From a virus, in UHGV virus genome UHGV-1845973: a stretch of DNA of 21,770 nt. One strand, given 5' to 3'. Shown here piece by piece: positions 3,484 to 20,563 of this stretch. Within the stretch, counting starts at the first letter, position 1, and each line of letters opens with the position of its first letter. A program made the translations under genes and the position numbers. The notes under the pieces are model-generated. The model saw only the letters and a list, made by a program, of their open reading frames with translations. It made no database searches and was not told the origin of the DNA.

Positions 3484-3918
3484 TCATTGTCGCCATGCAT
3501 TTTTTAACTCAGGAATATCTGCCATTTCAATTAACTTGCGAAGTCCAGCACTGACTTTCCCATTGCCAACCATAGCAAGCCAATCTCTTACAGCTTTCGG
3601 CATGTAGAGCGTTGCAGTTACCGGCTCTTCAACCCTGGCAGGACATCCGCATACAGGCCATTTAATTGACTCCATAACTTCGGATGCCGGGGTGAGGGCG
3701 GGGACATTGAGTATATCTCTACCAGAAAACTGGATAACGATCCGTTCAGCGAGCGAGAGTATCTCACTTTCGGCAAGAATTGATGCCAACTGCGCCTCAA
3801 CAAGAAAGCGACTTGTTGTGTTCAGAGAGTGGCTCTTAGCGCCATTTTTATACGAAACAAAGATTCGATACGCCATAACTCTAATGATTTGTGTTAGAAA
3901 ACTAAAATTAAACCACAT
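3484..3918 (-). CDS. Hypothetical protein with C-terminal ribbon-helix-helix (Arc/MetJ-like) DNA-binding domain
   Basis: The C-terminus TATLYMPKAVRDWLAMVGNGKVSAGLRKLIEMA fits the RHH beta-alphaA-alphaB pattern seen in Arc and Mnt. The N-terminal domain of about 85 aa is unassigned. The start is either ATG 3918 or ATG 3876 (MAYRIF...). A TAAAAT -10-like hexamer lies on the minus strand at 3949..3944. Confidence 0.5.
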   Translation of the reverse strand: MWFNFSFLTQIIRVMAYRIFVSYKNGAKSHSLNTTSRFLVEAQLASILAESEILSLAERIVIQFSGRDILNVPALTPASEVMESIKWPVCGCPARVEEPVTATLYMPKAVRDWLAMVGNGKVSAGLRKLIEMADIPELKNAWRQ

Positions 3919-3964
3919 AACAACATGTGTGTTAATAGATTTTATTTTACTAAACCTATTGACT

Positions 3965-3985
3965 AAATCACAAAGTAGGTATTGT
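3965..3985 (+). promoter_or_regulatory. Candidate -35-less (late-type) promoter: AAATCACAAA-N5-TATTGT
   Basis: The motif and spacing are the same as at 1191 and 20058. It lies 50 nt upstream of the capsid gene start. The adjacent TTGACT (3959..3964) is only 15 nt from the hexamer, which is too close for a normal sigma70 -35. Confidence 0.45.
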
Positions 3986-4034
3986 TAGTCCGTCAAAAGA
4001 ACCTTCACGCCGCGCCCGAATTTAGGGCTTAACC

Positions 4035-5732
4035 GTGAATAAAAACATTCAGCCAGCTCGTGATCGCGAGCGCGAGATTATGAATCGGGCGGCAAGCGTC
4101 ATGGCTATGACCGTCGATCCGACCACCGATGCAGCAGGCAACATGATTGCTGACCAGGCAGTAATGATGGAAAACCTGGATAAAGCAATCCAGAAAGTGC
4201 CTATGTTTGAAGGCGTAAATCCAGAGGTCGCTCGTCAGATCACTGGTGGGTGGGCTATGTCTCTGCATGAGTATAAACGTCAACATGGTCATTACCCGGC
4301 AAGTGACATCCTGGCGAACGCACACATGGCTCTTGAACGCCTAATGACTGAATGTGCCAGTGATACCCACGAAGGCACGGGTAAGGCAATGTTTGAGTCT
4401 GTCGCGCAATCAATGCGTAGCTCTGACGGCGTAATGAAAGTTGCTCAATATGCTGCTCTAATTCTGCCTGCCTCTCTGGGCGCTGCTACCAGTGATGCCT
4501 GTACTTTTGTTCCTTGTGATCGTGACGAGTCAAATATTTATGAACTGGTCAACGTAGCAGGCACAAAATTCGGCACCTTCAAACAAGGTGACGAACTGAA
4601 TATGCAGTCAGCTGGTGTTTATTCTCAAATGAAGCGCCTGTATACCCTTTCCACTAAAGGGGATGGCAGCACCAAAACCTTCCAGTTCGACATCCAAAAT
4701 TTTGAGGGACAATCCTGCCCGCTTCGCGCTGGTTATAGCAAACTGCTGATCAACCGCAAACCGTCCAAAGTTGACGACGGCGATGGCAACCTTTATTTCA
4801 ATGCTAAAGACAGCAAAGGTAAAGCTTTCTCAGCGACTGCCAAAGTCGCCTATGACACTGGTGTCATTGACATTACATTTACCCAGGCTCCGCCAGAAGG
4901 TACTGAAATTGCTGTTCAGGTCGAAATTAACATCGAGCGCAATCCAAGCCTGATTCCTGTGATCAACCAGGCTATGCGTAAGTACGAAGTTCGTCCGTCC
5001 CAGTACGTAATTGCTTCCGAACACACGGTAATGTCCGCATCCGATTTAAGCCGTGAGCACGGCCTTGAATTAGCGGCACTTCAGTTCTCCGCGATGCGTA
5101 ACTGGATCTCCCATGAAACCGACATCATGCGTCTGCGCACCCTGGTATTCCATACCGTTTATGGTCGTGAATTTGATGTGGCTCTGCCGGAAGCTCAAAA
5201 CTATGAGTCCTGGGTCGGCCTCCTGCGTCACGTAGTAAACGCTCTGTCTCAAGAAATGGCAAATCGTACCCTGACAACGGGTATTCGTGGCGGCTTTGCT
5301 GGTGGTGACGCCGCGAACTTCCTGCGCTCTCTGCCTCCACAGCACTTCCAGATCGCACCAGGTTACGTTCAGTCGCCGTATGTACAGTACATCGGCACCC
5401 TGTTTGGCACGATTCGTATTTACGAAGTGCCGCAACCTGTCTGTGAGCAATTCCAGGCACAGGGATATGACTTCGGGCTGGATGACATCTTCTTCTATGG
5501 GCGTGGCGAAGGCATCGGTAAAGCCGGTCTGATTGCTGGTGATGCAGTCCCAGCAATCCCTTACGTGCACGAAACCAATCCGTCTCTCGTTAACCGTACC
5601 ACTCTCTGGGGCAGTGCCATCAACGAAGTACATCCTCGCAACGGTGAAAACTACTTCACCCGCCTGCGTCTGACTCGCGCCAAAGAAGGTGCTATCGACA
5701 TGCTGACAGGCAAGGTTAACGAAAAAAAGTGA
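4035..5732 (+). CDS. Putative major capsid protein precursor (P1 gp23-like, about 62 kDa)
   Basis: It is the first gene of the structural block, followed by an Ig-like decoration-type ORF and the sheath gene. Codon usage looks strongly biased toward high expression (CGT, CTG, GGT, GAA). The size matches my recollection of the P1 gene 23 product. The GTG start at 4035 is uncertain. The function is assigned from synteny and memory, not from a recognised motif. Confidence 0.55.
   Translation: MNKNIQPARDREREIMNRAASVMAMTVDPTTDAAGNMIADQAVMMENLDKAIQKVPMFEGVNPEVARQITGGWAMSLHEYKRQHGHYPASDILANAHMALERLMTECASDTHEGTGKAMFESVAQSMRSSDGVMKVAQYAALILPASLGAATSDACTFVPCDRDESNIYELVNVAGTKFGTFKQGDELNMQSAGVYSQMKRLYTLSTKGDGSTKTFQFDIQNFEGQSCPLRAGYSKLLINRKPSKVDDGDGNLYFNAKDSKGKAFSATAKVAYDTGVIDITFTQAPPEGTEIAVQVEINIERNPSLIPVINQAMRKYEVRPSQYVIASEHTVMSASDLSREHGLELAALQFSAMRNWISHETDIMRLRTLVFHTVYGREFDVALPEAQNYESWVGLLRHVVNALSQEMANRTLTTGIRGGFAGGDAANFLRSLPPQHFQIAPGYVQSPYVQYIGTLFGTIRIYEVPQPVCEQFQAQGYDFGLDDIFFYGRGEGIGKAGLIAGDAVPAIPYVHETNPSLVNRTTLWGSAINEVHPRNGENYFTRLRLTRAKEGAIDMLTGKVNEKK
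5723..5729 (+). promoter_or_regulatory. Candidate -1 programmed ribosomal frameshift heptamer A_AAA_AAG
   Basis: The zero-frame codons are GAA AAA AAG TGA, so the heptamer is in the correct phase one codon before the capsid stop. The -1 frame stays open for 35 more codons, to the TAA at 5834..5836. Confidence 0.3.
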
Positions 5733-11140: not shown

Positions 11141-11364
11141 TATGTGTGCTGTAGGGAAAGGTTTACGTTAAATGTGTGCTGCCGGGAAACCCCATTGCTC
11201 AAGATGTGTTGTAGAGGGAATGGTAATGGCAACATGTGTGCTGGAGGGGAATTTCGCATGTAAAGAGCGTCATTTATCCCTCCAGCACACATCTGAAATA
11301 AGCAATCCTCTGAAATTCCCTCCACCACACATCCAGACATGAAACTATCCCTTCAGCACACATT
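11141..11364. repeat. incA-like iteron array: seven 19-bp RepA-binding repeats downstream of repA
   Basis: Four copies have the GATGTGTGCTGGAGGGAAA orientation, at 11141, 11171, 11203 (diverged) and 11233. Three copies have the opposite orientation, at 11275, 11315 and 11346. The last overlaps the repA stop codon. The core CAGCACACAT/ATGTGTGCTG is conserved. Confidence 0.85.
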
Positions 11365-12227
11365 TAATCTGTTGGTTTAAGTTTCGGATTCCGAGAGTGA
11401 ACGATAATGAAGTTTTCACGACCTTGCTTTTCAATGGTGCAATCGAGATAACCTATTGTTTTTAACTGGTCTATAGCTTTTTTTATCGTTCTGTTTTGCT
11501 CACTTACCGATGACATCAAGGCTAATCTTTCACGTATTCTGGCAAATGAAATAGGTATTGGACGTGCCGGGAGGCTTTCTATAAAGGTATATATGGCCTG
11601 GGCTGCTTCTTTTTTAGGTAAAGCGCGAAGTGCGTGTTGCTGTAGAAGCACCCGATAGTCTAGCTGGAAGATTTCCCATAACTTGGAATCAGCCTCCAGT
11701 TCAACGACATCTGTTTCAAAGTCAAAATATCCCGTTTTAAGCAGGCCAGTATTGTAGCTTCCACGAGCACTTTTCCCTCTTTTGAATGAGATGCCTTTGT
11801 TGCGTAACCGACCTAAAGAATCGTGGATCGTGTTTCTTAATTTCCCATCAAGTCGCTTAGATGGAAATCCGCACGCCTTTGCAAATTCTTGAAAAGAAAG
11901 GCGAATTGTATTCGATGATAAGCCATACTTGCTAAATGAGTAGATTACCCCAATCCAGACTTTGAAATCAGTATCCATGTCCAAGCGAGGGCCAGTGATC
12001 TTGATGTTGTCGTAGCCTTCTGCTTGAGCTATTTCCAATTTGGAAAAAACAGATGATGCATCTATCTCGTTGTTTTCACCCTGTTTTTTAGTTGGTTTAG
12101 GGACGAAAACACCAAGCCGCATAAGTGCGACAGGTTGAACAGTATTGTTCGAATTAACTGTTAATTCTTTAGCCTTGCTTTCAATGTCAGCATAAAGAAT
12201 ATCAGAGATAAATGACTTATCCATCAA
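11364..12227 (-). CDS. repA: P1-type plasmid replication initiator RepA
   Basis: The 287-aa product is near-colinear with P1 RepA as I recall it: FISDILYADIESKAKELTVNSNNTVQPVALMRLGVFVPKP...ITGPRLDMDTDFK...LSFQEFAKACGFPSKRLD...ALPKKEAAQAIYTFIESLP...IVHSRNPKLK. It is flanked on both sides by P1-type 19-bp iterons. Confidence 0.95.
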   Translation of the reverse strand: MMDKSFISDILYADIESKAKELTVNSNNTVQPVALMRLGVFVPKPTKKQGENNEIDASSVFSKLEIAQAEGYDNIKITGPRLDMDTDFKVWIGVIYSFSKYGLSSNTIRLSFQEFAKACGFPSKRLDGKLRNTIHDSLGRLRNKGISFKRGKSARGSYNTGLLKTGYFDFETDVVELEADSKLWEIFQLDYRVLLQQHALRALPKKEAAQAIYTFIESLPARPIPISFARIRERLALMSSVSEQNRTIKKAIDQLKTIGYLDCTIEKQGRENFIIVHSRNPKLKPTD

Positions 12228-12429: not shown

Positions 12430-12492
12430 GGATCTATTTGGTACTATATGGATCTAATCAGGATCTATATATTGGATCTATCCTGTGGATAA
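12430..12492. other. oriR-like origin core: four GGATCTA heptamers carrying GATC (Dam) sites in an AT-rich stretch, plus a perfect DnaA box
   Basis: GATC occurs at 12431, 12451, 12462 and 12475, each within GGATCTA. TGTGGATAA at 12484..12492 is the reverse complement of TTATCCACA. A weaker DnaA-box-like AGTGGATAT lies at 12262..12270, between the iterons and repA. Confidence 0.8.
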
Positions 12493-12578
12493 AAAAGAAG
12501 AATTACAAAGCTCCACCCAATTTCACACACTACCTATCCTCCAACGAATAAACAGACATCTGCTTATCGGAGGAATAC

Positions 12579-13400
12579 TTGAACATTCCAAAATTCCCAT
12601 TGCCTTCCCGTCCTGAGACAGAAATTCAGTTCCACGCCCCTACCGTGAAGGATGCGCTGAAATATTCTGACCTGAACCCGGCAGAAGATGAGGCAACTAC
12701 TACAGAGTACCTTAACTCTATGCAGGATGGTGAAATTAACGACAGTGCTTACTGGACAGTCCAGGATCGCAGAACTGCCCTTTGGTGGATATTTGTTAAT
12801 TCGCGCCCCGATGCAGTAATGACCTACTCCTATGAGTGCAGTCACTGCGGTAATACGCATCATGCAGATATTAACCTGAGCGACCTGGCCCAAACAGTAG
12901 AAATACTCACTGTACCTCCTTACGTGAAAACCAACGTACCAGTAAATGGAGTACCAACTGACTGGATACTTAAACCATTAACCGGGAAAGGTGCGGAACT
13001 CCTTGAACGAATGCGAGCGTCACTTCCTGATATGAAAAGTCCCGAATACAGTGCTGGCGTAGCACGGATGCGAATTGCTGAACTCGCTTTATGCACGGCG
13101 CTTGAAGACGATCCGGAGGACTTCACGCAGGCCGCTAACCGACGCTTTGACATCATTGAAAGCATGGCGCTTGAAACCGAATTTACTCCGCTTGTGGCTC
13201 GCATACAGCTTATGCAAAAAGACCTACGTCACGGCCTGAAAATGTCTATTGAGAGAGGCTCAAGCCGACTGATCCTGCCTCCGCAACATTGCAAAAACGC
13301 TAAGGAGGGTGCAGATGTGACAACCACACTGTACGTCCCCTTTCTCAATAGAGAGTTTATCCCATCAATTAGATCTGAATGGATGGCTAACCATTATTAA
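12579..13400 (+). CDS. Hypothetical tail assembly protein (273 aa) preceding the tape-measure gene
   Basis: The TTG start has GGAGGA 4 nt upstream. The gene sits directly upstream of the giant tail protein. It contains a CSHCG...HH element. The function is inferred from position only. Confidence 0.4.
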   Translation: MNIPKFPLPSRPETEIQFHAPTVKDALKYSDLNPAEDEATTTEYLNSMQDGEINDSAYWTVQDRRTALWWIFVNSRPDAVMTYSYECSHCGNTHHADINLSDLAQTVEILTVPPYVKTNVPVNGVPTDWILKPLTGKGAELLERMRASLPDMKSPEYSAGVARMRIAELALCTALEDDPEDFTQAANRRFDIIESMALETEFTPLVARIQLMQKDLRHGLKMSIERGSSRLILPPQHCKNAKEGADVTTTLYVPFLNREFIPSIRSEWMANHY

Positions 13401-20025: not shown

Positions 20026-20051
20026 TTCTTCCCCCGCATTTGGGGGAAGAA
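20026..20051 (+). terminator. Perfect 10-bp hairpin (TTCTTCCCCC-gcattt-GGGGGAAGAA)
   Basis: It lies 4 nt after the stop at 20022. No U-tract follows. It sits immediately upstream of the promoter-like motif at 20058. Confidence 0.4.
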
Positions 20052-20057
20052 CAACGG

Positions 20058-20078
20058 AAATCACAAACTGAGCATACT
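20058..20078 (+). promoter_or_regulatory. Candidate -35-less (late-type) promoter: AAATCACAAA-N5-CATACT
   Basis: This is the third copy of the motif architecture. It lies 39 nt upstream of the ATG at 20117, which heads the tail-fibre operon. Confidence 0.45.
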
Positions 20079-20116
20079 CTCCTTTGGTTCATTGCTTATG
20101 AAGGGGCTATGTTCGT

Positions 20117-20563
20117 ATGGCTGAAAATTTAAAGGTAAGAGATGGTAACCGCCTGTATAAGGCGCAATTACTTTCCTACTATTATTCACGCCGCGCAGAG
20201 TCGGCGATCGGCAAAGGTGCGCGTTTTGTTATCTCTAAGGCGTATTGGTGCAAATCTAGTCTGGTAACTGCTAATGGTGCAGGAGGCTGGAATATAGCGG
20301 ACATTCCGCTCGATTTTAAATTGAGTGGCGCTCAACAGTTTGCTGTGTCCGATCTGATATTGTCCAGCGTGGATGGGATTATCACGATCAATGCAGCCTT
20401 CCCTCAAGAAAGAATGCCGGATAACACGCCTTACGACTTTAACACGCTTGTGCTTGTTGATGCTGAGGAACAGGCTTTTGGTGTGCTTTGCACCCAGCAA
20501 GATACCCTCTATAAAGGTAAACGTTACAGTATTCTCATGACAATCGAGCAAGTTGAGGGTTGA
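20117..20563 (+). CDS. Hypothetical tail-fibre-associated protein (position of P1 gpR)
   Basis: The 148-aa ORF lies directly upstream of the tail fibre gene. The segment FNTLVLVDAEEQAFGVLCTQQDTLYKG loosely recalls the N-terminal domain of P2 gpH (ELGLYDDAGTLIAVAN). I consider this similarity weak. Confidence 0.4.
   Translation: MAENLKVRDGNRLYKAQLLSYYYSRRAESAIGKGARFVISKAYWCKSSLVTANGAGGWNIADIPLDFKLSGAQQFAVSDLILSSVDGIITINAAFPQERMPDNTPYDFNTLVLVDAEEQAFGVLCTQQDTLYKGKRYSILMTIEQVEG

Follow-up and report, generated by a model that had tools for sequence, protein, structure and literature searches.

The DNA analyzed here in full, referred to below as the window, is a stretch of 21,770 nucleotides from the UHGV virus genome UHGV-1845973. 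It is 100% identical to the E. coli plasmid pB2C_96 (NZ_CP035876.1) and 97.3% identical, across 89% of its length, to phage D6, a P1-like phage-plasmid to which P1 itself is only distantly related and whose genes are named for their P1 counterparts. By the D6 annotation, the window holds counterparts of upfC and upfB; of 23, 22, 21, pmgG, bplB, pmgC, and tub; of pmgB, sit, pmgA, bplA, and 16; and of R and S. The genes stbA/parM, orf52/53, and repA are encoded on the opposite strand. Among plasmid and contig records, matching elements come from Escherichia, Salmonella, Klebsiella, Shigella, Citrobacter, Pantoea, and Enterobacter. Neither the D6 record NC_050154 (the RefSeq copy of MF356679) nor record AY753669 contains promoter features, and among the records examined no promoter is annotated for the operons of D6-type elements. 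Tests on whole elements used the sequences of D6 and pB2C_96, each pieced together from record segments.

Predicted late promoters in the window

A sequence-only reading of the window had pointed to a 10-mer, followed after five nucleotides by a -10-like hexamer, in front of three operons. The three sites, beginning at 1191, 3965, and 20058, read letter for letter as claimed. All are intergenic and share the orientation of the next gene; between hexamer and start codon lie 24, 49, and 38 nt, the codons being at 1236 (ATG), 4035 (GTG), and 20117 (ATG), respectively. The 10-mer AAATMACAAA matches the window exactly three times, always on the plus strand, against a mean of 0.30 in dinucleotide shuffles, and none of the 100 shuffles reached three copies. 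The claimed excess thus stands; the rate quoted with it, one copy per 0.5 Mb per strand, does not, since it assumed equal base use and understated chance occurrence about 3.6-fold. When the 10-mer, N5, and NANNNT are required together, three copies are found where 0.02 are expected.

Scanning the window with a family PWM revealed four sites scoring at least 18 (1191, 3965, 12520, and 20058), all on the plus strand and all at the start of an operon. The next-best score was 11.5, within sit, and simulated windows contained 0.28 hits scoring at least 12. At all four sites, hexamer position 2 is A and position 6 is T. A sigma-70 consensus scan called no plus-strand promoter at any of them, which bears out the earlier statement that the first three sites recognized lack a properly spaced -35. 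A TTGACT at 3959 adjoins the gene 23 box, but it lies only 15 nt from TATTGT. Sigma-70-like sites are depleted in the window as a whole, with 13 called against 30.6 +/- 5.8 in shuffles.

The first site, at 1191-1211 on the plus strand, is the predicted late promoter of upfC (PAAR) and upfB. It consists of the box AAATAACAAA (1191-1200), an exact match to the 10-mer, the spacer gtgat, and GACAAT (1206-1211), with a predicted start at about 1217-1219 ahead of the ATG at 1236 and a family PWM score of 18.7. The orthologous site is present in D6 and pB2C_96, the version in the D6-like element CP085065 reads AAATCACAAA gtgga GAAGAT, and the 21-mer is identical throughout 11 unique D6-like sequences.

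The second site (3965-3985, plus strand) is predicted to drive the major capsid gene 23 and the head, sheath, and tube operon, and is the positional equivalent of P1 LP23. Its box, AAATCACAAA (3965-3974), again matches the 10-mer exactly and is followed by the spacer gtagg and the -10-like TATTGT (3980-3985); the predicted start lies at about 3991-3993, the GTG at 4035, and the family PWM score is 18.5. Among 19 distinct D6-like upstream regions, the site stands 70 nt 5' of the GTG in all but one, where the distance is 69 nt. Its sequence is fixed apart from position 5 of the box (C/A) and positions 13-14 in the spacer, although contigs this close are weakly informative as a footprint owing to their low overall divergence.

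The highest score in the window, 24.0, belongs to the site at 20058-20078 (plus strand), the predicted late promoter of the tail-fibre operon R-S-U and the positional equivalent of P1 LPs. It comprises the box AAATCACAAA (20058-20067), an exact copy of the 10-mer, the spacer ctgag, and CATACT (20073-20078), with a predicted start at about 20084-20086 and the ATG at 20117. The site is kept in D6, pB2C_96, and CP085065, in which the flanks have diverged. Between gene 16 and this box, directly 5' of the latter, lies an inverted repeat of 10 bp that is rich in G+C (ttcttccccc gcatt tgggggaagaa, 20026-20051) and may mark the operon boundary; it is not followed by a T run and for that reason was left uncalled in the terminator scan.

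The fourth site, at 12520-12540 on the plus strand, had been overlooked earlier. It is the predicted late promoter of pmgB-sit-pmgA-bplA-16 and consists of the box ATTTCACACA (12520-12529), the spacer ctacc, and TATCCT (12535-12540), with a predicted start at about 12546-12548, a TTG start codon at 12579, and a family PWM score of 18.2. Its orthologue in D6 and CP085065 reads AAATCACACA ctccc TATCCT. Because the window element, D6, and CP085065 carry different replicon modules, they share no related sequence upstream of the box; past the replicon-module junction, conservation begins with the box and hexamer. In the window element, the box has A-to-T changes at positions 2 and 3, two mismatches that may make the site weaker. 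This site would restart late transcription downstream of the repA/ori insert, which runs in the opposite direction.

Directly upstream of the pmgB promoter, positions 12430-12500 carry five copies of the GATC-rich ggatcta and a DnaA-box-like tgtggataa, and repA (11364-12227, minus strand) lies beside these repeats. This segment is probably the plasmid origin; the replicon module of the window differs from those of D6 and CP085065.

Two degenerate copies that the sequence-only reading had listed did not hold up as promoters. The string at 2339-2359, before the spanins, is present, but neither its core nor its hexamer is conserved: D6 has GGCACACAAA..GTAATT and CP085065 has AGCCCATAAA..ACAAAT, and the Citrobacter and Pantoea relatives have no promoter gap or motif at the counterpart position. 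The string at 12500-12520 is likewise present, but it has no -10 and falls in replicon-specific sequence absent from D6 and CP085065.

Distribution across whole elements

The pattern AAATMACA-N7-NANNNT occurs 11 times in D6 and 11 times in pB2C_96, compared with 0.7 expected from 300 first-order Markov simulations, whose maximum was 4. The 8-mer alone has 23 copies in D6. The 11 that bear a hexamer are all intergenic (intergenic sequence makes up 10.5% of the genome), all oriented to the next gene, and located 45-157 nt from its start; the 12 without a hexamer are divided equally between intragenic (6) and intergenic (6) positions. An unbiased count of all 8-mers in the oriented upstream intergenic regions of D6 placed AAATCACA first (10 regions, p ~1e-16), with AAATAACA also ranking high.

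Every one of the 11 D6 sites precedes a late-type operon (lysis, head, tail, or anti-restriction). The genes 3' of the sites are lysozyme, darB, prt/pro, ddrB, lydA-darA, R-S-U, pmgB-sit, 23-tub, upfC, 7-24-6-5, and mat. The PWM scan of pB2C_96 likewise returned 11 sites, located before homologous genes. Scanning the whole genome and its relatives, as had been proposed for the motif, showed it to be associated with the starts of late operons both genome-wide and across species. Additional sites stand where P1-like operons are broken by plasmid or accessory inserts: before pmgB, after repA, and before gene 7, after a toxin-antitoxin insert.

Anatomy of the element

The consensus of 46 sites from five elements is AAAtcACAaA Ct.c. 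TA...T. The element is 21 bp long and bipartite, a roughly 12-bp box (AAA-t-c/a-ACA-n-A-C-y) being separated by N3 from TAnnnT; if the hexamer is placed at -12 to -7, the box spans -27 to -16. ACA occupies box positions 6-8 in 45 of the 46 sites and C occupies position 11 in 41, while the hexamer has A at position 2 in 45/46 and T at position 6 in 46/46. Information content averages 1.03 bits per position within the 21-mer and about 0.05 in the 30-40 nt on each side, a figure that is partly circular because the sites were chosen with the PWM; the de novo 8-mer test is free of this circularity. The box has no dyad symmetry.

It is scarcely credible that the element acts in RNA, as part of a leader, a processing site, or an antitermination signal, or that it recurs by chance. 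Read-through from upstream operons could include the element in transcripts, but its fixed distance to TAnnnT argues for recognition in DNA by polymerase. Moreover, an Rfam search of the window returned zero matches, and the flanks carry no information content for pairing with the element. Chance is excluded by the shuffle, Markov, 8-mer, and PWM tests.

The hexamers differ in quality. Several sites have poor ones (GACAAT, GAAAAT, TATCCT), and others, such as CATAAT and TATGCT, are acceptable as -10 elements. Together with the A-rich box, the latter could fit activator-independent, -10-only sigma-70 promoters in which the box, inherited from a common ancestor, would be no more than a favourable spacer or UP-like sequence. 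Several observations make this highly improbable. The conservation is base-specific (ACA and C11) and goes beyond general AT-richness, the unrelated flanks indicate that the sites are not duplicated segments, and, as described below, different clades carry different boxes at the same place. An extended -10 promoter was also considered and rejected: where a TG occurs (cTGnn), it is at -16/-15, not at -15/-14, and many sites have CTCCC or CCGCn there.

Comparison with P1 late promoters

P1 late promoters contain an Lpa site (PMC10695390). Of the 11 late promoters marked in the P1 record, ten consist of a 9-bp "-22 region", 4 nt, and a hexamer (LPhot has a 9-nt spacer), and the set aligns to (A/G)ACAAGTGACTT-N4-TAnAAT. 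The D6-type sites resemble them in having an element centred at about -22, 4-5 nt before TAnnnT, with no -35, so that the position earlier proposed for the motif, that of the P1 -22 element, was correct. The spacing differs slightly, with a 9-mer, 4 nt, and hexamer in P1 and a 10-mer, 5 nt, and hexamer in the D6 type.

The two sets also agree in number, with 11 promoters each, and largely in place. Six of the D6 sites occupy the positions of LPs, LP23, LPmat, LPdar, LPpro, and LPlyz. The D6 sites at pmgB and gene 7 lie within operons whose P1 counterparts are transcribed from LPsit and LP26, and D6 has inserts at these points. Compared with P1, D6 has extra promoters before upfC, darB, and ddrB and none between lpa and pacA; since D6 lpa overlaps pacA, D6 is without an equivalent of LPpac.

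Despite the common layout, the boxes themselves differ. The D6-type box is AAATMACAnACy and asymmetric, whereas that of P1 is AAGTGACTT and is described as a 9-bp inverted repeat. Reciprocal PWM scans ruled out that the two are one consensus: the P1-type PWM recovers the P1 promoters and none of the late sites of the window, D6, or pB2C_96, and the D6-type PWM finds 0 of the 11 P1 late promoters. An AAnT(C/G)AC core is common to both only if one box is shifted by 2 bp with respect to the -10, an alignment of uncertain meaning. The same difference is seen upstream of the capsid gene, where P1 and the P1-like contigs L044, L045, and L050 have AACAAGTGACTT tcaa TAAAAT, 79 nt upstream of the match. 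Whether the motif matches the P1 consensus, a question that had been left open, can thus be answered in two parts: the layout agrees and the sequence does not.

Box type and Lpa clade

Lpa is an activator that binds DNA in a sequence-specific manner and is believed to act through the polymerase-bound host protein SspA (PMC1891329), which links region 4 of sigma-70 to the zinc-binding domain of beta-prime with no DNA contact of its own (PMC7515715). No solved structure of Lpa exists. We found that orf4 of D6 encodes an Lpa homologue, matching PF25716 with E = 5e-57 and 31% identical to P1 Lpa, and that its gene adjoins pacA, as in P1. The Lpa of pB2C_96 (record positions 86737-87129, outside the window) is 100% identical to that of D6. 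Indeed, every box-bearing element that we examined also encodes a PF25716 protein.

Following Lpa to more distant elements, we observed that CP085065, whose Lpa is 81.5% identical to that of D6 (tblastn), keeps all orthologous sites within diverged flanks and has additional ones ahead of darB and of a gene resembling ddrB. A Pantoea plasmid (Lpa 43% identical to D6) carries AAAtTACAnA-CyCCn-TAnnnT before late genes, and a Citrobacter plasmid (37%) carries AAA(n)(y)ACAnA-cy-N3-TAnnnT. The box forms in these two plasmids are AAAtTACAnA or AAAgTACAnA, in the same geometry as in D6, and pacA is there a separate gene with its own box. Their R homologues are preceded by ATTTTACGAA ctcca TACCCT (Pantoea) and AAAGTACAGA ctgat TATTAT (Citrobacter), and the capsid 5' regions of Pantoea, Enterobacter, and Citrobacter relatives have AAA(T/G)TACAAA ccgcn TAnnTT. 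In Cronobacter phage JK004, by contrast, Lpa clusters with that of P1, and P1-type boxes are found at at least 10 sites.

Box type follows Lpa clade in six elements. P1 and Cronobacter phage JK004 combine a P1-clade Lpa with AAGTGACTT boxes, and D6, pB2C_96, CP085065, and the Pantoea and Citrobacter plasmids combine a D6-clade Lpa with the new box. As whole genomes co-diverge, this co-variation supports Lpa as the cognate factor without proving it.

Capsid-upstream regions in other species extend the picture, with the variants AAATCTCTAA, ATATCACTT, and ACCACTT. Those of Rosenbergiella, Ca. Pantoea alvi, and Enterobacteriaceae B14 (L043, L048, and L049) have AAATCTCTAA cctcc TAAATT, AACATATCACTT tcca TAAAAT, and AACACCACTT tcgc TATTCT, respectively, and the AACATATCACTT variant combines P1 spacing with a D6-like TCAC core. 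This suggests that P1-like elements have a range of -22 boxes.

The pmgS homologues of the Pantoea (L010 30924-32213) and Citrobacter (L014 23810-25111) plasmids are annotated as containing an RNA polymerase alpha C-terminal domain. If this annotation is right, these phage-plasmids encode a second polymerase-related protein.

The sites could also be late promoters whose box is read by another phage-encoded activator or polymerase-binding protein, or by a host factor, a reading that we consider unlikely. The co-variation of box and Lpa clade would fit any co-diverging phage protein, the box is asymmetric where that of P1 is a dyad, and the pmgS homologues offer one annotated polymerase-domain protein. 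Nevertheless, the layout and the operon starts are those established for P1 Lpa, the PF25716 protein accompanies the box in every element, and no sigma-like gene is annotated in D6.

A second motif, probably a repressor operator

A second enriched motif (aaTTAGTTTTCTAACAc / TTAGTTTTCTAACA / aaTTAGTTTTCTAACAcaaa), unrelated to the box, has 12 copies in D6, 11 of them intergenic, and stands mostly before early-type genes: c1, hrdC, ref, pdcB, orf88, orf117, and orf52. The C1-like repressor of D6 probably uses it as its operator. One copy lies in the window at 3878-3913 on the minus strand (core TTCTAACA, 3892-3899), which places it 16 nt 5' of orf52, whose start is at 3876. As a repressor operator, it would make orf52-orf53 early and repressor-controlled, divergent from the late capsid promoter. 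Upstream of D6 lpa, the operator-like TTTTCTAATA is a one-mismatch variant of the same motif. In the P1 record, Olpa controls lpa, and the presence of the second motif at D6 lpa fits a cascade from repressor to Lpa to late promoters, as in P1.

Facing orf52 on the minus strand is a sigma-70-like TTGTGA-18-TAAAAT (3944-3973) that agrees with 9 of 12 consensus positions and may be due to chance. Its -35, TTGTGA, is the reverse complement of part of the gene 23 box, so that an activator bound to the box could block this leftward promoter.

This overlap (3973 to 3944), and the location of the box between the usual -35 and -10, a frequent binding place of repressors, could also be read as signs that the box itself is an operator, bound by a C1-like or other negative regulator over weak constitutive promoters. 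We regard this as very unlikely. aaTTAGTTTTCTAACAc, found before early-type genes, is the better operator candidate, the box with its hexamer is confined to late-type operons rather than common to early and immunity genes, and promoters with weak -10s and no -35 would need activation.

A proposed second class of Lpa-dependent late promoter

Taken together, the evidence favors the reading that the motif marks Lpa-activated, -35-less late promoters of D6-type phage-plasmids, which form a second specificity class beside that of P1. We give this reading a probability of about three in four. The proposal in the sequence-only reading, of a late-promoter signature that may be recognized by a distinct activator, is thereby supported, the support being comparative. 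In the proposed mechanism, D6-type Lpa would be made early from a repressor-controlled promoter. It would bind the box and permit sigma-70 RNA polymerase to initiate about 7 nt past the hexamer, probably in concert with polymerase-bound host SspA. D6-type Lpa and its box would form a specificity pair separate from that of P1 Lpa and AAGTGACTT, and, the box having no dyad, the D6-type binding mode may differ from that of P1. Promoter activity, late timing, Lpa binding, and an SspA requirement are all predictions that we draw from these comparisons.

Related strategies are known from other phages. In the middle promoters of T4, a MotA box centred at -30 replaces the -35, and AsiA remodels sigma region 4. 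The likeness lies in a phage activator box that takes the place of the -35 upstream of a sigma-70 -10 and in host polymerase being switched to a later gene class. The difference lies in the D6-type box, which is about 8 bp nearer the -10, and in MotA and AsiA homologues, which are not annotated in D6. In P2 and P4, the zinc-finger activators Ogr and Delta recognize a dyad near -55 and make contact with polymerase at its alpha subunit, and cross-activation between co-resident elements is known. Their late promoters, too, depend on a small phage-encoded activator, serve several late operons, and have poor -35 elements; they differ in the position and symmetry of the site and in the protein family.

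Boxes of the foreign type

Each D6-like element has a single perfect copy of a P1-type late promoter, (G/A)ACAAGTGACTT tcat TAATCT, on the plus strand at record positions 71093-71114 in D6, 59042 in pB2C_96, and 7202 in CP085065. These elements encode only a D6-type Lpa, and the retention of the P1-type box counts against our model, which does not account for it. The box is convergent with mat and precedes, by about 60 nt, a conserved hydrophobic ORF of 44 aa (orf77). Searching P1, JK004, and the Pantoea and Citrobacter plasmids for homologues of orf77 gave weak hits only.

The reverse case is found in the P1 record, where a strong D6-type site, AAATCACAAA gtaca TACCGT, occurs at 31571-31591 on the minus strand. 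The holin-like lydC begins 50 nt downstream of the site, in the neighborhood of cin, and no lydC promoter is annotated. LydC is slightly nearer to the LydA of Citrobacter (D6 clade) than to P1 LydA, and the P1 site may accordingly be a relic of exchange.

These "foreign" boxes are unlikely to have arisen by chance, and the P1-type box is conserved in three D6-like elements. One unlikely idea is that the Lpa-box pairs are orthogonal and that each lineage keeps, before a gene for a small membrane protein, one promoter of the foreign type as a sensor of a rival phage's late activator. If this were true, such promoters would fire only during the rival's late expression, leading to exclusion, premature lysis, or piggy-backing. 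That the foreign boxes are relics of mosaic exchange is at least as likely.

Implications

A full-text literature search for the D6 late promoter and Lpa and for the motif strings returned nothing relevant; the D6 and P1 genome papers fell outside its scope. Within the literature searched, the principle of a -22 box read by Lpa is known and is unchanged by our results, and the box sequence and its family-wide distribution appear to be new. The analysis provides a D6-branch late-promoter consensus for P1-like phage-plasmids and defines the late transcription units of the window. It also indicates that late transcription is re-established wherever virion operons are interrupted by plasmid modules. 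The predicted second activator-box pair, which should be free of cross-talk with that of P1, would be an orthogonal part for phage-timed expression and may be of use in asking how the late programmes of co-resident phage-plasmids stay separate.
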